A DNA stretch of 48,916 nt, taken from Atractiella rhizophila (Eukaryota). Within the stretch, counting starts at the first letter, position 1. The number at the start of each line of letters is the position of its first letter. Below are positions 1,941 to 20,077 of this stretch, one piece after another. The notes under the pieces are model-generated. The model saw only the letters and a list, made by a program, of their open reading frames with translations, did not search any database and was not told the origin of the DNA. Where the stretch lies: assembly GCA_021432655.1 (NCBI GenBank), contig MU271257.1, positions 1 to 48,916 of the forward strand. Direction: 5' to 3'. A program made the translations under genes and the position numbers.

Positions 1941-1965
1941 NNNNNNNNNNNNNNNNNNNNNNNNN
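1941..1965. other. Assembly gap (25 N)
   Basis: Run of N. Confidence 1.
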
Positions 1966-2112
1966 ACCCACAGACTCTCCCCAGACCAAATCCTTGCGGC
2001 GAAGTTGGTGTTGTCAACTCTACGCATGCTGCATTTTTTACGCAGACGTACTTAGTTCTTTGCGTGACTTACCATCGCGACACAGGAACTCAATTTGGGA
2101 TGGGCCTGAGGG

Positions 2113-2119
2113 TATAAAA
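2113..2119 (+). promoter_or_regulatory. TATA box of Egh16-like paralogue 1 (an equivalent TATAAAA lies at ~7188 for paralogue 2)
   Basis: TATAAAA ~200 nt upstream of the ATG, at the homologous position in both paralogue promoters. Confidence 0.6.
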
Positions 2120-2312
2120 AACGCCAGACTTCCTCTCATTTTATCATCAAAACACATCCAGAGCTCGCCTACTTCTACTCAATCCTAGTTTTGAACGTTG
2201 AACGTCCTTCGCTTTTCGCTCACCATCACTTCACCTAACTTTTTCACCAGCAAGTCTGCTTTAATATTTAGCTTCTCCCACTTCAACAGTCCATTTTTTT
2301 CGACAATCGGAA

Positions 2313-5300
2313 ATGGATCGATCAGCTCTCGCTCTCCTCTCGGTCCTCTCGCTCGTTAATGCCCAGGCCGCACTGACCAACGTATGATTTCTTCCCATCT
2401 TTCGAGAGCCGTCCGGAGCAGAAACTGACGAAGAAATTAGATCGTGGGAGGCAACGGAGTCACAAATGTCGGGCCTTGGTGTCCAGTCCCAGACTCCTAA
2501 TTCAGGGCAGGGCATTACTGTCAGCGGAGGCGGTTGCGGAGCTGCAAACACTGCTCAGCTCTCGCTACCTGTGAGCACCATTCCTCCTCTTCCCTCTGCC
2601 TTGCCTTTTGGCTGACTGACACAACAATAGCGACGGCCAATGGCATTGCCACCCCTGATGACAGTGGAAATCTGAACATGGAGGTGTTCATTGTGCGTCC
2701 TTCCCTCCTATTGGAATAAACCAATAGAATTCACGTATTGTATGTGAGCACAACAATAGCGACGGCCAATGGCATTGCCACCCCTGATGACAGTGGAAAT
2801 CTGAACATGGAGGTGTTCATTGTGCGTCCTTCCCTCCTATTGGAATAAACCAATAGAATTCAGCGTATTGTATGTGAGCAGATCAATAGCCAGGGAGAGG
2901 GACCTTATACCTGCGCTTTGGATACCACTGGGCGCAGAAAACTCATTCAACACTCCTTTGACAATCAAGACCAACGGTTAGCTCTTTCTTACAGCCCTCA
3001 AGTCTCAGGTGTTAACTCATGCATACCCCACATCCAGTAAACAACCAAGTTGGTCAGGCGTGTTTCTCTCGTCGCTGCCATGCCATCAGGAATCACCTTG
3101 TCCCTCCACCGGCTGCATTGTCCAATGCAAGAATAGTGCTGGGTGGGCGCAACAAATCCTCTCTGCAGACTGGAATGAAACTGAATATTGACGACCAGAT
3201 TCGGTGGGTGTGTACCCGTTGCACCATCCAATACCGCAACCGGCTCCAGTGGTAGGTCTTCCCCCTCTCCTCGATTGTAACTGACGATCCGTAGGAACGG
3301 GCGGCAATACGGGATCTGCTGCCACAGGCAACAGTGGAAATGCTGGCAATGTTGGCGACACCGGCAATAATGGAAATGCTGGCAACACTGGGAATACTGG
3401 CAACGCGGGAAATGCCGGCAACACTGGAAACCCTGGCAACTCTGGAAGCCCTGGACAGGTCGCGAAGAGAGGTACATATTATCTCACTTCAGTGTTGCTT
3501 ATGACAGCGCTGACCTACTTGTGAAGCCACACCACCTGGTAACGGTGCAGACCGGAACGTAAACGTCAAGGACCCCGAACCGTCAGCAATTTCCACTCCT
3601 CGTTCTTCACACTGACAATCTTTCCATTTGACAGTCAGCGGAATCCTCCTGTCCAACCCCACCGAGCCCCACCCCCCCAGCCCCAAAGCCAGGCAAGGCT
3701 GGAAAGCCTGCGAAGAGAGGTACATATTATCTCACTTCAGAATTGCTTATGACGGCGCTGACCCACATGTGAAGCCACACCACCTGGTAACGGTGCAGGC
3801 CCGAACGTAAACGTCAAGGACCCCCAGCCGTCAGTAATTCCTCTGTTTGTTCTTCAATCTGACAATCCATTCATTTGACAGTCAGCGGAATCCTCCTGTC
3901 CAGCCCCCACCAAGCCCCACTCCCCTGCCCCAAAGCCTGGCAAGGCGGGAAAGCCTGAGAAGAGAGGTACATATCATCTCACTTCAGTGTTATTTACGAC
4001 AATGCTGACCCCCATGCCAAGCCACACCACCCGGTAACGGTGCAGACCCGAACGTAAACGTCAAGGACCCCCAGCCGTCAGTAATTCCCTCTGCTTGTTC
4101 TTCAATTTGACAATGCGTTCGTATTTGGCAGTCAACGGAATCCTCCTGTCCAGCCCCCCACCAAGCCCCACTCCCCCTGCCCCAAAGCCAGGCAAGGCTG
4201 GAAAGCCTGCGAAGAGAGGTACATATCATCTCGTTACATACAACAGCGCTGACCTACATGTTCAGCCACACCACCCGGTAACGGTGCGGCGGGGAATAAT
4301 GTCAACAACGGAAATCCTGGTGCGTCCTCCTCCCTCCTGCCTGTAGGAGGCTGAAGCGATCTTACAGGCGCTCAAGGACAAGGAAACGGGAACCAGAATG
4401 GAAACCAGAATGGAAACCAGAACGTAAATCAGAATGTAAACGGCAACGACCCCCAGCCGTCAGTAATTCCCACCCCTCGTTCCTCACACTGACAATCTGT
4501 TCATTTGACAGTCAACCGAATCCTCCTGTCCAACCCCCGCCAAGCCCCACTCCCCCTGCCCCAAAGCCTGGCAAGGCGGGAAAGCCTGCGAAGAGAGGTA
4601 CATATCATCTCACTTCAGCGTTGCCTATGACAGCGCTGACCTACATGTGAAGCCACACCACCCGGTAACGGTGCAGGCCCGAACGTAAACGTCAAGGACA
4701 CCCAGCCGTCAGTAGTTCCCTCTGTTTGTTCGTCAATCTGACAATCCATTCATTTGACAGTCAGCGGAATCCTCCTGTCCAGCCCCCACCAAGCCCCACT
4801 CCCCCTGCCCCAAAGCCTGGCAAGGCTGGAAAGCCTGTGAAGAGAGGTACATATCATCTCACTTCGATGTTACTTACGACAACGCTGACCTACATGTTCA
4901 GCCACGCCACCCGGTAACGGTGCGGCGGGGAATAATGTCAACAACGGAAACCCTGGTGCGTCCTCCCCCCTCCTGCCTGTAGGAAGCTGAAGCGATTTTA
5001 CAGGTGCTCAAGGACAAGGAAACGCGAACCAGAACGGAAACCAGGACGGAAACCAGAATGGAAACCAGAACGTAAACCAGAATGTAAACGGCAACGACCC
5101 CCAGCCGTCAGTAATTCCCACCCCTCGTTCCTCACGCTGACAATCTGTTCATTTGACAGTCAGCGGAATCCTCCTGTCCAACCCCCACCGAGCCCCACTC
5201 CCCCAGCCCCAAAGCCTGGCAAGGCTGGAAAGCCTGTGAAGAGAGGTACATATCATGCCACTTCAATGTTATTTACGACAATGCTGACCTACATGTCCAG

Positions 5301-6078
5301 CCACACCACCGGTAACGGTGCGACGGGGGACAATGTCAACAACGGAAACCCTGGTGCGTCCTCCCCCTCCTGCCTGTAGGAGGCTGAAACGATTTTATAG
5401 GCGCTCAAGGACAAGGAAACGCGAACCAGAACGGAAACCAAAATGGAAACCAGAATGTGAACCAGAATGTAAACGCCAACAACCCGCAGCCGTGAGTAAA
5501 TCCCACTCCTCATTCTTCACTCTGACAAATTGTTCATTTGACAGTCAACCGAATCCTCCTGTCCAACCCCCACCAAGCCCCACTCCCCCAGCCCCAAAGC
5601 CTGGCAAGGCTGGAAAGCCTGTGAAGAGAGGTACATATCATCTCATTTCGATGTTACTTACAACAACGCTGACCTACATGTCCAGCCACACCACCCGGTA
5701 ACGGTGCGGCGGGGAACAAAGTAAACACTGGTACGTCATCTCTCCTTGCACACTAGTGTCATTGTCCTACGTTGTAGCTGCAGCTGACAACAATTCCTCC
5801 AGGCGCGACTGCCACCACCCAAAGAAATGGAAACCAAAACGCGAACCCAGATGTAAACACAAACGCTGCCGCCAACGGACGTCAGCCGTCAGTGATTCCT
5901 ACTTCATTCCTCATTCCCTTTGTGGTCTGACGATATTTGCACATTCGATAGTCAACCAAACCCTGCTGTCAGGCCTCCCCCCAGCAAGGTCCCGCAGCCC
6001 CCTGCTGGACAGGCGCATGCGAATGGACCCGTTGGAGGGAGAATGGTGAAGGCCATGAAGAAGAGGAGGATGCATTAA
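2313..6078 (+). CDS. Secreted Egh16/GAS1-like (DUF3129) protein, paralogue 1, with a G-N-x linker and a KR-delimited Pro/Gly/Asn repeat tail; carries several 1-nt indels as assembled
   Basis: Signal peptide MDRSALALLSVLSLVNAQAAL; IVGGNGVTNVGLG; INSQGEGPYTCALDTTG; LVAAMPSGITCPSTGCIVQCKNSAGFGGCVPV (matches the DUF3129 pattern). More than 20 small exons follow, ending AMKKRRMH* at 6076-6078. Frameshifts relative to paralogue 2 or sibling repeats occur near 2471, 2556, 2930, 3660, 3923 and 5310. Confidence 0.75.
2620..2878 (+). repeat. Tandem duplication (~129 bp x2) of exon 3 plus its downstream intron
   Basis: cacaacaatagcgacggcc...tatgtgag occurs at 2620 and again at 2749, differing by one indel. 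Confidence 0.95.
3472..5730 (+). repeat. Tandem array of exon-intron modules (~250-bp type A and ~385-bp type B; order A A A B A B B plus a terminal variant)
   Basis: Recurring aagagag|gtacatat ... ccacaccacc(c/t)ggtaacggtgc ... |gtcagt ... gacag|tca(g/a)c..aatcctcctgtcca units. Confidence 0.95.
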
Positions 6079-7387
6079 GCAGCATTTAAGCAGCACTAAA
6101 GGACGCTTCTAGTTTGAAATTGATAGTTACCAAGCGATGTAATACGAGCAAGCGTGACTAGGAGAGAGTGAAAGGACATTCTAGCGTTTGCTCACATAAT
6201 TTGCATCCTGGCACTCGTCTCTGTCTCAGCGAAGGAAGAACATGCAGCTGGCATCAAAATTGTTGGTAAAACTACTGTAAAACCACTCCTCCACGTGTGT
6301 TGGTGTTTGCACGGTAACGCAGCCACTGTGTTACCGAGTCGCGTTCTACAACCTTACGTGGAAGGTAACTGTACCACGTGCCAAATTACAAGCTCATTAA
6401 GGGTCCGCACACAGTGCTCATTACTCAGTCGTAGTTGTAGATGTATTCCTCCATCCTGAGTATCCGCCAAGGACCAGGATATTATTAGTTTACTTAAATT
6501 TTACAGCAAACTGTGTTCAGGAAATGTCCATATGTAGTCTGGTTTAAGTCTGAAGAGCACAGCCTCGATGTAGTGTGCTATCTTAGCGAAGTTGCGTTTT
6601 CGCTCAACGTAAAGTTCGATTGTTACTTACTATGCTCAGTGAAATCGCCGGGAAGATGATGCGCTCATACGCTCATGATAGAGTTCAAACACCGGTGTTT
6701 ATTTGGTGATCCAATCTGAGCACAAATTTGGCCGACTTGGTAGATTATGTCGGGGGATATTGATGTGCCATCTCCTGGAGGACAGGATTGCCTACAAATG
6801 ACTTATTATTGTCTACGCTTGCCGCTTGTCGTTTTTACGCCGTGAGAGGTTTCTGAATATCCAGTTAGGCAACGTCGTGATGTTTCCATGGCCCCTAAGT
6901 GCAATGTTCCAACTTCGTCTCCCTTTATAACGCAGCAGCTAACTGCGGCATCCCTGTGGTAGTCACCCTCGTCTTGCTTTTTAGTATCAAGCATCTGACT
7001 GCGATATCATTGTGGTGCCTTAGCGCTTCACTTTACAATGACACCTTTCGATTCTCCAGACCAAATCCTTGCGGCGAAGTTGGGGTTGTCATCTGGACGT
7101 ACGCTGTATTTTACGCGCAGGTGATGCTCAGTTCTTCGCGTGACTTATCCATCACAACCCAAGAAGCCAATTTAGGGTAGGTCTGGCTATAAAAGCCCTA
7201 GACTTCCTCGGTTGAGGTCAACAAATCCAGCTTGCCTTCTTTTCAGCGCCTCAAGTTTCCAACGTTGAACGTCGCCATTCGCTTTCACATTCAATACTCC
7301 ACCTGAGTCTTTCACCAGCCAGCCAGCCTGTTCTACATCTTCGCGTCTCTCTCTCCTATTTCAACAGTCAAATATTTACCTTTTACT

Positions 7388-9066
7388 ATGGATCGATCTG
7401 TCATTGTCCTCCTATCTCTTCTCTCGCTTGTTAATGCCCAGTCCGCATTGATCAATGTATGCTGACTCCATATCTTTCTAACCTCGCTGCATTTAAGCTG
7501 ACGAAACAATAGATTGTGGGAGGAAACGGAGTCACCAATGTTGGCCTTGGCGTTCAATCCCAGACCCCAAGCGAAGCACAGGGAATCACTGTCAGCGACA
7601 ACAGTTGCGGAGCATCGAACACCAATCAAGCTCTCGCGACCTGTGAGCATCCAAATCTTACCCCGCGTCGTATAGTGACAAGCATGCAGCGACGGCGGGC
7701 GGCATTGCCACGCCTGATGACAGCGGTAACCTGAACATGGAGGTTTTCATCGTGAGTCTTTCCTCCTCCATTTTGAAATAACTGTAGGACACTCACGCGT
7801 CGTACGGAACAGATCAACAGCGATGGGGATGGACCATACACCTGCGCTTTGGATACCAGCGGCACTGGAGACTCCTTTGACACTCCTTTGACAATCAAAA
7901 CTAACGGTTCGTGCCTCATTTAGCCAATATGGTCTCGACTGCTAACTCGGATATCTGGTGCATCCAGTAAACAACAAAGTTGGTGAAGCGTGCACCCTCG
8001 TTGCCGCCATGCCATCAGGAATCACCTGTCCTACTACTGGTTGCATCGTCCAATGCAAGAATAGCGCCGGGTACGCCTGCTTTATCATTTATGCGGAGGG
8101 AAGAGAAGTTGAAGTGTAACGAGCAGATTCGGCGGATGTGTGCCCGTCCTCCCTGCTAATAACGCTGCCGCCTCCACCGGTAGGATTCCCTCTCTTGATC
8201 CGTTGGATGAAAGAGAACTGAAGTTGGGTAGGGACAACTGGGTCTACGACTAATACTGGAAGTGCTGGTAACGACGGAAGCAGTGACAACACTGGAAATA
8301 CCGAAAATACCGGAGACACTGGAAGTGCTGGAAACTCTGGTAACACTGGGGGCGCTAGCGACAGTGGAAACGGTGCAAACGGAAACAACGCGGTGAAGAG
8401 GGGTACGTATCCACTCACGCCAGATTATCGCATCAACGCTGACCTACAAGGTGTAGCTGCCGCGTCACCCAGTAACACAGTGAAGAAAGCAAACGCAGGT
8501 GAGTCCATCCTACAAATCAATACATCTTTGTCTCACAACGATTCATCCAGGCGCAGCAACCAAGAAACCGAAGACGAGCGCAAAACCGTCAGCCATCCCC
8601 TTTCCTCACTGCAATTTCCCTGATACTAACGGAATCGTGCCGTCGACAGTAAATCAACTGCTGTAGTCAAACCGAAAACGAGCGCCAAGCCGTCAGTCGT
8701 CCCCTTTCCTCATCTCATTTCTCTGGTACTAACGAAACGTTCCGTCGACAGTAAATCAACTGTCAAACCTAAAACGAGCGCCAAGCCGTCAGCCATCCCT
8801 TTCTTCTCCTGCAATTCCCCTGATACTAACGAAACGTTCCGTCGACAGTAAATCAACTGTCAAGCCTAAAACGACCACCAAACCGTCAGTCCCCCTTTCC
8901 TCACTGCATTTCCCCTGATACTAACAATCGTTCCGTCGACAGTAAATCGACTCCTGCGGCGAAGACACAGTCCAGCAAGAGCCCCAAAACGACTGCTGGA
9001 CAGGCTAAGGGACAGGTGAGGAGGAGGACGTGGAGGGCTTTGAAGGGGATGGGGAGGAAGCATTAA
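7388..9066 (+). CDS. Secreted Egh16/GAS1-like (DUF3129) protein, paralogue 2, intact, with a Lys/Thr-rich microexon tail
   Basis: MDRSVIVLLSLLSLVNAQSALIN; INSDGDGPYTCALDTSG; CPTTGCIVQCKNSAGFGGCVPV. Intron positions match paralogue 1. The tail has KSTVKPKTSAKP repeats and ends RRRTWRALKGMGRKH*. Confidence 0.8.
8588..8945 (+). repeat. ~100-bp tandem intron+microexon repeats (four introns)
   Basis: Repeated gtcag...tactaac...cgtcgacag|taaatc units with 36-42 nt exons. Confidence 0.9.
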
Positions 9067-10336
9067 GGACGCTTTGTCTGTTTTGAATTAATCCCTATAA
9101 TAGGTGTGAAACGATGCATGGACGTTGATATTTGCTATATAGTATAGATATAACAAGACGGATGGAATTATATTCTGTTTTGTTCCTGTCATTTGTTCCC
9201 TCCACCTCGAATCCAGGAAAAATGTTTTTTTTTTTTCGAGATTTCGATAGAGACTGCACCGTGGTTGCGCCATGGTGAGGGAAGAACCATCTAATCACTT
9301 CACATCAAGGTGAAGACAGAAGGCTCTGAACGGTCGTATATCGGAGCATAAGGAGAATCAGAGTGGGGAACCGAGAGGTGGAATCTTGGTTTTTTCTCGC
9401 TTTTCGATCATAGTGCAGTTTCCAGCGAATGGGGTTGCCCATCGGCTACATTATATTCAGAGCCGCGACATGTGCTCAGAAAAATAAACGTAAGAGTAAT
9501 ACAATTTCCCACCGTGATACATACTGCGATTATTCCTTACGATTCGTCAAGGCCTAACATCGTATTGCGTATTCTACCATGACGAACTCTTTCGGCACAA
9601 GTCTTTACTCTTTACACGCACATTGACTGCTGACATATTATATTTGAGACGACAAGCTGAGCGGCCCCTCGTCCCCGGGGGGAGAAGTCACCTGTTTCAG
9701 TGGTGAAAACTTTTTTTTCGTGTTTCAAATAGTCTTTGATGTACACGGTTCGAAAAGCACCGACACGTGTATTCTGGCGGTCTACTCAGAATTCTGAAAG
9801 AGTTCTTGTGGGCGGTGATATAAAGGTTCAAAAGTACATGCGTGAGTCATGGTCAAACCCGTCGTGCGTTTTATATAAGGATAAGGATGGCTGAACGATA
9901 GTGGTGTGCACGACCGTACACTTATTGAACCGGCATTCGATCACGCTTCGCACCGCAAGGAAGAGGTGCCTGAGTGTCCGGATAGGACTACTAGCGCCAG
10001 TACGTGTTCATAGCCTCCCAAATTTTACGTCTCCTGCAAAGCCTTGATTGTGTTGTAAAGCTGAGACCTTGGACATGATACATCTTGGAGATTAGAACGA
10101 AACAATGGTCATTTCGATAGCTAAGAATGATTGATGATGGATGAATATGGGGCTAATCTACTACTTTTGAACTGTTCTTTCTCTTTCCCTCACCCTCAAT
10201 GCCACTAAGAGACAACAGACTGAGCATCCATCCTCTCCTCTCCTCTCCTTCCTTCCCTCTATATCCACCACTCCAACGCATAACTCCACATGTCATCCAC
10301 CACCCCCTCTCAAAGACACGAAGATAATCATGACGA

Positions 10337-18296: not shown

Positions 18297-20077
18297 GGTG
18301 GTTGCTGTGGATGCCCAAACGAATTTCGACGAGGAAAGGAATGTAGCTGACTTTATTATACTCTAAGAGCCGCTCTGCGCCAACTTGCCCTTCCTGAAAA
18401 CACACACTGCTCCTCTCACACTCCACAAAATTTTGTGCTCACAGGTTTGGTTTCGTTTTGGTTCTAATCTGAACGTGACACGTGATCGCTTCACGACGCT
18501 GAGCGGTTATGTTTTTGCTTTGCGTATCTCTCAGAGGGTAGGTGCAGCTTCAAATTGAATTCATGACGAGCGAGAAACAGTGCATTTGCTCATCAATGTG
18601 TCCATTAAATGAGAAGGCCAAACGATGAAAAGAGACATTAACCCAACATGAGTATCATTCAAGGAAACAGGATCAAACACATCCAGTCCATCATCATCAT
18701 AAATCGTTAAGTGCTCATACAACCGAATCGAACAATCACATCCAACACCAGATAAGAACGAAGAAGGCGACGGCGACCGTGCAAGCTATTCGAGAGGTAT
18801 CCAAAGCCTTCATCGACAGAGCTCCGCTGCCATTTGAGCCGTTTGAGGTTGGGTTCGTCCCAAACTGGGTGTTGGTCACTCTTCCGGTCGTCGTCGAGAT
18901 GGGGATGACGATTACAGTTGGACGACCCTGAGAGTCCGTAGTGGAAACCGACGTCACGGTTTGGGACGGAACTGGATTTCCATTCGCATCCGTGGCTGAG
19001 GGGCGGGGAGAGAGGGGGTTGGAAGGATTAGGATTCGAGGAAGGGTTTGCGGAGGGGTTGGAAGGGTTGGATGAGGGGAGGGTGGAAACACCTTGAGAAT
19101 CAGCATTCGAGCTTCCACCAACAGGAAGGACGTAGTGCCCTCCGTAGGTCGTGGGCTCGCGCTTCGGCCGTCCGTACGACTGGTGCTTGTGGCGCGTTGG
19201 GCCGGCGAGGGCGGGAGAGGACGTGGAGAAGGGGCGGATGCTGCCTGGGAGTCGCATTGGAGGCATGGTGGTTGCTGTGGATGCCCAAACGAATTTCGAC
19301 GAGGAAAGGAATGTAGCTGCCTTTATTATACTCTAAGAGCCGCTCAGCGCCAATTTGCCTTTCCTGAATACACACACTGCTCCTCTCACACTCCTTCACA
19401 AAATTTTGTGCTCACAGGTTCGGTTTCGTTTTGGTTCGAATCTGAACGTGACACGTGATCGCTTCACGGCGCTGAGCGGTTGTGTTTTTGCTTTGCATGT
19501 CCTCAGAGGGTAGGTGCGTCTTCAAGTTGAATTCATGACGAGCAAGAAACAGTGCATTTTGCTCCTCAGCATGTCCATTAAACGAGAAGGCCAAACGATG
19601 AAAAGAGACATTAACCCAACATGAGTATCATTCAAGGGAACAGGATCAAACACATCCAGTCCATCATCATCAGAAATCGTTTCGTGCTCATATCAACACC
19701 CAATCATAACGAAGAAGGCAACGGCGACCGTGCAAGCTATTCGAGAGGTATCGATAGCCTTCATCGACAGAGCTCCGCTGCCATTTGAGCCATTTGAGGT
19801 GGGGTTCGTCCCAAACTGGGTGTTGGTCACTCTTCCGGTCGTCGTTGAGATGGGGATGACGATTACAGTTGGACGACCCTGAGAATCGGTGGTGGAAACC
19901 GACGTCACGGTTTGCGACGGAACAGGATTTCCATTCGCATCCGTGGCTGAAGGGCGGGGAGAGAGGGGGTTCGAAGGATTCGGATTCGAGGAAGGGTTTG
20001 CGGAGGGATTGGAAGGGTTGGATGAGGGGAGGGTGGAAACACCTTGAGAATCAGCATTCGAGCTTCCACCAACAGGA
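18157..20077. repeat. Diverged tandem duplication (copy A 18157-19126, copy B 19127-20077) spanning the MRPL4 5' end, its promoter and the 3' end of the GPI-type gene
   Basis: Direct alignment of the two halves, with many substitutions and small indels. Both copies begin and end with AGGA. Confidence 0.95.
18736..19266 (-). CDS. Chimeric 176-aa ORF: MRPL4 N-terminus fused in frame to the Ser/Thr/Pro stalk and hydrophobic C-terminus of the neighbouring GPI-type protein
   Basis: [17 protein letters not shown]...GGHYVLP|VGGSSNADSQ...IACTVAVAFFVLIWCWM, preceded by a copy of the MRPL4 promoter. Confidence 0.6.
   Translation of the reverse strand: MPPMRLPGSIRPFSTSSPALAGPTRHKHQSYGRPKREPTTYGGHYVLPVGGSSNADSQGVSTLPSSNPSNPSANPSSNPNPSNPLSPRPSATDANGNPVPSQTVTSVSTTDSQGRPTVIVIPISTTTGRVTNTQFGTNPTSNGSNGSGALSMKALDTSRIACTVAVAFFVLIWCWM

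Follow-up and report, generated by a model that had tools for sequence, protein, structure and literature searches.

An Egh16-like gene with an array of KR-bounded repeats in Atractiella rhizophila, a candidate precursor of Kex2-processed peptides

In the root-associated basidiomycete Atractiella rhizophila, we analyzed a stretch of 48,916 nucleotides (nt) (contig MU271257.1 of assembly GCA_021432655.1, positions 1 to 48,916 of the forward strand; here called the window) that carries two related genes in tandem. The first, gene 1 (positions 2313 to 6078, plus strand), is a genuine, expressed, multi-intron gene, in which a putative signal peptide is followed by an Egh16-like domain, a Gly-Asn-rich (GN) linker, a Lys-Arg (KR) pair, and a series of KR-bounded repeats. 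Exon 1 (2313 to 2381, plus strand, as are all the exons given below) contains the start codon and encodes an N terminus, MDRSALALLSVLSLVNAQA..., whose hydrophobic core and alignment to homologous signal peptides suggest a secretion signal, a judgment made by eye and from the alignment only. The Egh16-like domain begins in exon 2 (2441 to 2570) and continues through exon 3 (62 nt, present in two copies at 2631 to 2692 and 2760 to 2821 because of a tandem duplication spanning 2631 to 2821), exon 4 (2882 to 2976; INSQGEGPYTCALDTTG...TIKTN), and exon 5 (3038 to 3142), which carries a Cys-rich C..C.V.C.N.A motif; exons 2, 4, and 5 were placed by alignment to the paralogue. Sequence and paralogue alignment together place the end of the domain in exon 6 (3199 to 3251; FGGCVPVAPSNTATGSS). 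Exon 7 (3295 to 3471) translates into a (G-N-x)n linker that runs to VAKR and is followed by a phase-1 intron. Long open reading frames (ORFs) on the minus strand at 2998 to 3488 are mirror images of this GN-repeat exon.

From the end of the linker onward, the motif AAGAGAG/GTACAT occurs eight times (3465, 3713, 3960, 4212, 4591, 4840, 5239, and 5624), and seven array units of 247 to 399 bp each terminate in KR followed by a phase-1 GT..AG intron. Four of the units are of type A (about 247 bp, two exons): unit 1 (3527 to 3719; exons 3527 to 3581 and 3635 to 3719, ending in AKR), unit 2 (3775 to 3966; exons 3775 to 3829 and 3882 to 3966, EKR), unit 3 (4022 to 4218; exons 4022 to 4076 and 4132 to 4218, AKR), and unit 5 (4653 to 4846; exons 4653 to 4707 and 4761 to 4846, VKR; 47 amino acids [aa], in frame). 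The other three are of type B (379 to 399 bp, three exons), in which the middle exon is an N/Q-rich insert: unit 4 (4266 to 4597; exons 4266 to 4319, 4368 to 4458, and 4512 to 4597, AKR; 77 aa, in frame), unit 6 (4902 to 5245; exons 4902 to 4955, 5004 to 5106, and 5160 to 5245, VKR; 81 aa, in frame), and unit 7 (5301 to 5630; exons 5301 to 5353, 5401 to 5491, and 5545 to 5630, VKR). The order of the units is an irregularly interleaved A A A B A B B, and Tandem Repeats Finder detects periodicities of 247, 249, and 385 on the array. The last unit is a basic tail of 85 aa (isoelectric point [pI] 12), a diverged relative of the array units encoded by exons 5686 to 5730, 5803 to 5887, and 5952 to 6078 (5686 to 6078 in all), which ends in ...MVKAMKKRRMH and the stop codon at 6076 to 6078. 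All introns of the array are GT..AG introns of 47 to 72 nt with CTGAC-type branch sites. KR is invariant at all eight boundaries, and the residue that precedes it varies among A, E, and V. The predicted array units are 47 to 81 aa long, rich in Pro, Asn, and Gln, strongly basic (pI 10.4 to 12), and hydrophilic (grand average of hydropathy [GRAVY] -1.1 to -1.6), and they contain neither Cys nor aromatic residues.

This layout agrees with much of a first-pass annotation made from the sequence alone, which had described the linker ending in VAKR, seven KR-ending modules of two types, and a phase-1 intron after every KR; each can be read from the exon at 3295 to 3471, the recurring motif, the GT..AG at each boundary, and the translations of the units. 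The peptide sequences that it gave match those translated from units 4, 5, and 6. Its phrase "one peptide per exon module" is loose, since each unit consists of two exons (type A) or three (type B). It did not mention the frameshifts of the assembly, which are considered below. In the N/Q-rich exon of unit 7, one contig from a public DNA run (X1, below) carries a 12-base in-frame insertion at 5432 (depth 194 of 497), amounting to one extra GNQN-type unit; this is either allelic length variation or cross-mapping from unit 6.

Contigs from four public sequencing runs (X1, X3, X4, and X5) were placed on positions 2100 to 9100. X1 was the best DNA run (0.63 of sampled words), and X4 is a root metatranscriptome; the comparison covers 12 of 40 indel rows and 15 of 47 splice joints, and statements about indels and joints apply to these. 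Gene 1 is transcribed and spliced at the predicted sites, including in the root metatranscriptome X4. One RNA contig (record 21 of X5) is spliced through exons 1 to 7, covering 2159 to 2381 and then joining 2441. At the other end of the gene, the GT..AG joint 5729>5802 is seen in X3, X4, and X5, and 5887>5952 is seen in X3 and X5. Within the array, an X5 loose end, TCGCGAAGAG, that precedes 3525 represents the linker exon spliced onto unit 1; an X3 loose end behind 4218 continues into the first exon of the next unit; loose ends of X3 and X5 before 5160 read ...CCCCCAGCC; and record 18 of X4 covers 4761 to 4844 and joins 5023 to 5106, within a type-B middle exon, to a last exon. These joints and loose ends indicate that the predicted introns of gene 1 are removed.

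The X3 contigs also reach very high depths at 2334 to 2567, 3036 to 3269, 7482 to 7715, and 7950 to 8183 (1403, 196, 2821, and 713, respectively), and chimeric X3 joints, 3090>8025/8036, carry unmatched letters. This suggests that the X3 run contains a third, highly expressed relative, which may be another paralogue or may come from a related organism.

As assembled, gene 1 contains nine single-base indels. Five of them (+1, -1, +1, +1, and +1 relative to the intact paralogue) lie in the Egh16-like part, in exons 2, 4, and 5. The other four lie in the array, where the frame is preserved in only four of the eight units (4, 5, 6, and the tail). Units 1, 2, and 7 are each one base short and unit 3 is one base too long, in every case within a run of C; the C missing from unit 7 belongs to its first exon. 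A 25-N assembly gap lies at 1941 to 1965, and an error-rich patch starts just to its right. At full depth, X1 lacks the window base at 2470, 2930, and 3096, and likewise at 2116, 2149, 2863, and 4019, so that the one-base full-depth discrepancies are concentrated between 2116 and 4019, with 4019 the last among the rows listed. The surplus base at 2470 in exon 2 is omitted in X1 (351.6 of 351.6) and in X4; after 2557, also in exon 2, spliced RNA contigs of X3 and X5 have 14 letters where the window has 13; the surplus base at 2930 in exon 4 is omitted in X1, X3, and X5. Exon 5 has two surplus bases (at about 3068 and at 3096), the second of which is omitted in X1, X3, and X5, and the pieces of X3 record 9 and X5 record 21 that cover 3037 to 3141 have two gaps each. 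Since read-derived contigs disagree with the window at every one of the five N-terminal indels, these are local assembly errors beside the N gap rather than signs of decay. Gene 2, 1.3 kb downstream, is clean over 13 exons.

Exon 3 and its intron form a 129-bp tandem duplication (period 129, 2.1 copies, 97% matches; within 2620 to 2890), which is probably an assembly artefact as well: a 776-nt X5 RNA contig has space for a single copy of exon 3 only, and X1 depth falls to 75.6 in the bin 2568 to 2801 compared with about 340 on both flanks. For the four array indels, we infer the same origin, because they lie in C runs in or downstream of the error patch and because no unit contains a stop codon in its own frame. 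The check for real frameshifts, which the first-pass annotation had named as grounds for rejection, finds nine indels in the assembled sequence, five of which the read-derived contigs contradict and four of which are presumed errors. P0002 (280 aa, from a 118-kb contig), the database model of this locus, is shortened and partly out of frame, a truncation that follows from the local assembly errors in the patch from 1941 to 4100.

Elsewhere in the window there are further tandem duplicates of at least 300 nt that are 94 to 100% identical, at 18743/19694, 24596/26336, and 29704/32235 (spacings of 951, 1740, and 2531 nt), which copy parts of ORFs. These three are either draft artefacts, with haplotypes placed in tandem, or very recent duplications.

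The seven copies of the last unit exon share 94.3% identity, compared with 83.3% and 81.6% for the two introns. In this exon, 0 of 29 first codon positions vary, against 2 of 28 second positions and 8 of 29 third positions. This third-position bias argues for selection on the predicted peptide rather than decay and indicates selection on the reading frame of the array units. Overall, the units differ from one another by 5 to 15%, and their introns by about 17%. The array has grown by tandem duplication of genomic units of 247 to 399 bp that carry their own introns; because KR is inherited with the unit, its recurrence does not represent seven independent events. A second database model, P0003 (361 aa, from a 16-kb contig), represents an intact allele or another copy of gene 1: a putative signal peptide and the Egh16-like domain are followed by a GN linker with VAKR, a single type-A unit, and the tail. 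The 41-aa tail exon matches P0002 at 100% and P0003 at 98%. Searched against proteins of 73 to 2000 aa, this exon gave two matches among 16 candidates, both from Atractiella rhizophila and none from outside Atractiella, and residues 227 to 273 of P0003, searched against proteins of 198 to 632 aa, gave the same two Atractiella proteins among 61 candidates. Scans of metagenome contigs with the exon motif and with the tail stretch returned no matches in either case.

The N-terminal domain belongs to the Egh16-like family (PF11327, formerly DUF3129), as the first-pass annotation had supposed. P0003 matches the Pfam model with 53.9 bits (cutoff, 25) over model positions 58 to 178 of 183, and its GN linker matches Pfam Collagen; the window's own broken model, P0002, gave no PF11327 match. 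A profile search found 977 relatives at an E value of 1e-3 or better. The Atractiella domain has the C-terminal Cys motif C..C.V.C.N.A..FGG, of which C139, G143, C144, V146, C148, N150, A152, and F154 to G156 are invariant columns in the family alignment. The AlphaFold2 model of P0003 has seven strands with a predicted local distance difference test (pLDDT) score of at least 90 over approximately residues 70 to 160. A Foldseek search of the PDB gave no matches at an E value of 0.001 or better; its top row was the AA15 lytic polysaccharide monooxygenase (LPMO) 5msz, a weak match (E value, 5.1e-3), followed by many Ig-like folds.

In published work, Egh16-like proteins are described as distant relatives of LPMOs whose N-terminal His is a putative histidine-brace residue (PMC6950343, PMC12377627), a conserved Asp is placed in the N-terminal half of the family (Voshol 2019), and copper-dependent oxidase activity is reported for one member, TrsA (PMC12377627). 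In our 102-row alignment, 83 rows have this N-terminal His, and Gln stands in its place in the three Atractiella rows alone (P0003, P0004, and P0005). The conserved Asp (column 246) is D in 92 of the 102 rows and a gap in the same three, in which a segment of about 20 residues is missing. With the His replaced by Gln and the Asp segment absent, the Atractiella domain is, judging from the alignment, probably a noncatalytic descendant of an LPMO-related family. The first-pass annotation had called the protein an effector, a label made doubtful by these two missing residues and by the life of the fungus as a root endophyte.

The part of the protein that follows the domain has counterparts in other family members. 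In the AlphaFold2 model, residues 161 to 361 of P0003 show no secondary structure, with block pLDDT values of 42 to 70. Low-complexity C-terminal parts are usual in the family, and among 106 members the tail after the FGG motif has a median length of 86 aa. At least one dibasic site occurs in 72 of these 106 tails, and in 20 of the 26 GN-tailed members such a site lies no more than 25 residues past the last GN. The gEgh16 proteins of Fusarium, for example, share this GN linker and have NRR-AT.FSA behind it at the C terminus, and the Atractiella sites read VAKR-ATPP... in gene 1 and AVKR-AAAS... in gene 2, with a phase-1 intron right after KR in both. The array probably originated from an ancestral "(K/R)R-A-T" site of the kind that many Egh16-like proteins carry just past the GN linker.

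A C-terminal dibasic site with a short similar end is also found in the Egh16-like proteins of other fungi P0006 to P0013, P0016, P0023, P0034, and P0042, and likewise in P0047, P0048, P0053, and P0131, with endings such as ...NRRATQFSA, ...RRAVEFRA, ...RRAVSFQA, and ...PKRFRA. We know of no description of this dibasic ending in Egh16-like proteins; it could be a C-terminal propeptide. The relatives available for the tail survey were the best 150 of the 977 matches, and among the 180 Egh16-like proteins examined none had three or more consecutive similar fragments delimited by KR or RR. The sole other KR-bounded repeat among these 180 is in P0116 (379 aa), which has two 80%-identical, Cys-containing units, each terminated by KR (…DFDDSESTAVKR and …DFDDSESTAEKR). 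The first-pass annotation had called for a search for KR-repeat architectures in other fungi, and within this sample that search yields a two-unit case and none with three or more.

The tandem paralogue, gene 2 (7388 to 9066, plus strand), has 13 exons and an intact ORF of 332 aa. It has the same domain, the same GN linker, and an AVKR with a phase-1 intron equivalent to that of gene 1. Its continuation is a Lys-rich array (8551 to 8884) of 36- to 42-nt exons that encode units of 12 to 14 aa (KSTVKPKTSAKP) and are separated by phase-2 introns of about 60 nt, followed by a basic tail. At least 10 of the 12 introns of gene 2 are seen as joints, five of them in the root run X4; 7457 to 7512 and 8788 to 8848 are not among the joints listed. 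P0004 and P0005 are allelic models of gene 2. In X3 and X5, the joints 8587>8650 and 8587>8752 have nearly equal depths (11.5 versus 10.1 and 23.7 versus 23.6), which implies that the 42-nt exon 8650 to 8691 is either skipped or absent in one allele; since P0005 lacks this unit, we favor a difference in copy number between the alleles.

What becomes of the gene 1 product can be approached through the published computational criteria for KEX2-processed repeat proteins (KEPs), which are a signal peptide, at least three repeats between KR sites, and repeats making up at least 15% of the length (Le Marquer 2019, PMC6339444; Umemura 2020, PMC7329392). The predicted gene 1 product qualifies as a KEP on this definition, with a putative signal peptide, seven similar KR-ending units plus the tail, and repeats covering about 423 of about 734 residues; three of the seven KR-ending units are in frame as assembled, and the other four need the one-base corrections that we attribute to assembly errors. 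Kexins usually act on KR sites that are exposed in disordered stretches of secretory proteins. Because eight such sites lie in a region, predicted to be disordered and exposed, of what would be a secretory protein, cleavage by kexin appears the most likely fate of this region, and we regard a secreted, Kex2-processed polyprotein as the somewhat better-than-even interpretation of gene 1. Secretion, Kex2 cleavage, the function of the peptides, and the true number of units are all predictions from the sequence.

According to this interpretation, gene 1 would encode a secreted precursor of about 730 aa with a signal peptide. A divergent Egh16-like (LPMO-related) beta-sandwich lacking the N-terminal His and the Asp of the family would come first, then a disordered GN-rich linker to VAKR, seven basic KR-ending units, and the 85-aa basic tail. 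The Golgi kexin (Kex2) would cut at the eight KR sites, the basic residues would then be trimmed, and the domain with its linker would be released together with about eight peptides of hydrophilic, cationic character, in the manner of Rep1 and other KEPs; the first-pass annotation had likewise put forward cleavage and peptide release. An ancestral end with a dibasic site and a short C-terminal peptide may have been extended in two ways, in gene 1 by repeated duplication of the KR-bounded unit and in gene 2 by 36- to 42-nt exons coding for KSTVKPKTSAKP without KR. A bolder proposal, which we offer as speculation and think rather unlikely, is that this gene pair corresponds, in a fungus, to micro-exon genes, with symmetric exon-intron cassettes (encoding units of 47 to 81 aa in gene 1 and of 12 to 14 aa in gene 2) that are gained, lost, or skipped to vary the secreted product. 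The gene 1 cassette would then be the amplified C-terminal Kex2 propeptide of a pseudo-LPMO, and from a single transcript a metal-less Egh16-like domain and a tunable dose of cationic, Pro-rich peptides would be delivered into the root interface.

Several observations weigh against a processed polyprotein with seven KR-ending units. Cleavage at K-P-x-K-R/A-T-P-P is assumed from the general specificity of Kex2. The repeats of gene 2 (KSTVKPKTSAKP) have no KR between units, so that selection may have acted on having a basic tail rich in Pro and Lys, with KR incidental to it. The only full-length database model, P0003, comes from another contig and has one type-A unit and the tail. The closest pairs of units, 2/5 (95.1%) and 4/6 (94.7%), are about as alike as two X1 haplotype contigs at 6675 to 6897, and a mis-join of haplotypes could inflate the number of copies in the array, a number that short RNA contigs cannot reveal for any one mRNA. 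Finally, the four array indels are absent among the 12 of 40 indel rows listed, and their status as errors is inferred.

The strongest competitor, possible but in our view doubtful, is that the protein is secreted and stays mostly uncleaved. Linker and repeats would then make up a long stalk or adhesive tail, cationic and disordered, that tethers a noncatalytic domain to negatively charged polymers of the fungal or plant wall, with KR simply reflecting basic composition. The composition of the units is as expected for such a stalk, and the tails of both paralogues are basic, disordered, and rich in Pro and Lys, with strongly basic C termini, although only in gene 1 does KR stand at each unit end. 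Low-complexity C-terminal extensions are moreover the rule in the family, and a variable C-terminal region was described by Grell 2003, as cited in PMC11378017. A permanent stalk is harder to reconcile with the usual cutting of exposed KR in disordered secretory regions by kexin, with the retention of KR at eight of eight boundaries despite variation in the residue before it, and with the wide conservation in the family of a dibasic site right past the GN linker.

An improbable alternative is that the true array is shorter and that the draft has strung together the units of two haplotypes, leaving few KR-bounded units in the real gene. The other tandem duplicates of the window (18743/19694, 24596/26336, and 29704/32235) and the 129-bp duplication fit this idea, as do the single unit of P0003 and the roughly 95% similarity of the closest unit pairs. 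Against it, the divergence of the units and of their introns and the irregular order A A A B A B B point to an old array, and type-B exons, of which P0003 has none, are present in RNA (record 18 of X4). Very unlikely, finally, is that this haplotype carries gene 1 as a duplicate in decay, with real array indels and perhaps a real exon-3 duplication, so that this copy yields no polyprotein and the transcripts come from an intact allele: the indels and the 129-bp duplication as assembled, the truncated P0002, and the failure of the array indels to appear among the listed rows would suit it, but the read-derived contigs lack all five N-terminal indels, every unit is free of stop codons when read in its own frame, substitutions fall mostly at third positions, the array indels are all in C runs, and the discrepancies cluster beside the N gap.

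If the KR sites of gene 1 are used, a beneficial root endophyte would have a polyprotein of the KEP/Rep1 type built on an Egh16-like domain. This would connect two families that have been treated separately until now, and it would suggest that the dibasic site so common past the GN linker in Egh16-like proteins serves for processing. At this locus, protein repeats have also expanded via tandem duplication of whole exon-intron units. In addition, surveys of repeat peptides built on models such as P0002 would miss gene 1, a gene that assembly errors hid from annotation.

The comparison with known systems places gene 1 between two groups. Like the KEPs of the two surveys (PMC6339444, PMC7329392), it has a putative signal peptide and then at least three clustered, similar units split by KR, and repeats of 25 to 50 aa and of more than 51 aa occur among published KEPs. 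It differs from them in the folded domain of 140 aa and the 58-aa linker ahead of the repeats, in lacking the STE13-type XA/XP signature after KR (A-T-P-P instead), and in units that carry their own introns; its cleavage is predicted only. The Rep1 protein of Ustilago maydis is described as a secreted precursor cut at Kex2 sites into about 8 to 10 similar peptides of about 37 aa that act at the hyphal surface (PMC6339444, PMC7329392). Compared by description rather than by sequence, the two are alike as basidiomycete proteins with several similar units at Kex2-type sites, but Rep1 has no Egh16-like domain and its peptides are water-repellent and surface-active, whereas the units of gene 1 are hydrophilic and cationic and do not have this property. 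MiSSP8 of Laccaria bicolor, which matters for root symbiosis with Populus, and Rsp3 of U. maydis likewise come from plant-associated basidiomycetes and are secreted, with repeats at Kex2 sites (PMC7329392); as described, their sequences and repeat types are unrelated to those of gene 1. To the Egh16-like family (GAS1/GAS2, Egh16H, and TrsA; PMC6950343, PMC12377627) gene 1 is tied by the Pfam match and the shared Cys pattern, and the GN-rich linker and the dibasic site near the C terminus of Fusarium gEgh16 are common to the Atractiella protein, in which the C-terminal part has been amplified into a KR-bounded array. Neither Egh16 nor DUF3129 appears in the main texts of the two KEP surveys, and in the literature searched we found no paper with "Egh16" or "DUF3129" together with "Kex2." In the searched text of the Umemura 2020 supplement, "Atractiella" has no occurrence and "Egh16" has at least one: Table S2 gives RVD86777.1 of Arthrobotrys flagrans as a stand-alone KEP with an "Egh16-like" hidden Markov model profile (PMC7329392). 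The first-pass annotation had not recognized this fusion from any known protein, but there is at least one published listing of an Egh16-like protein that passes a KEP screen, known here from the table entry alone, and most GN-tailed family members have a dibasic site after the linker. Overall, the fusion of an Egh16-like domain with KR-bounded repeats is rare but not unprecedented.

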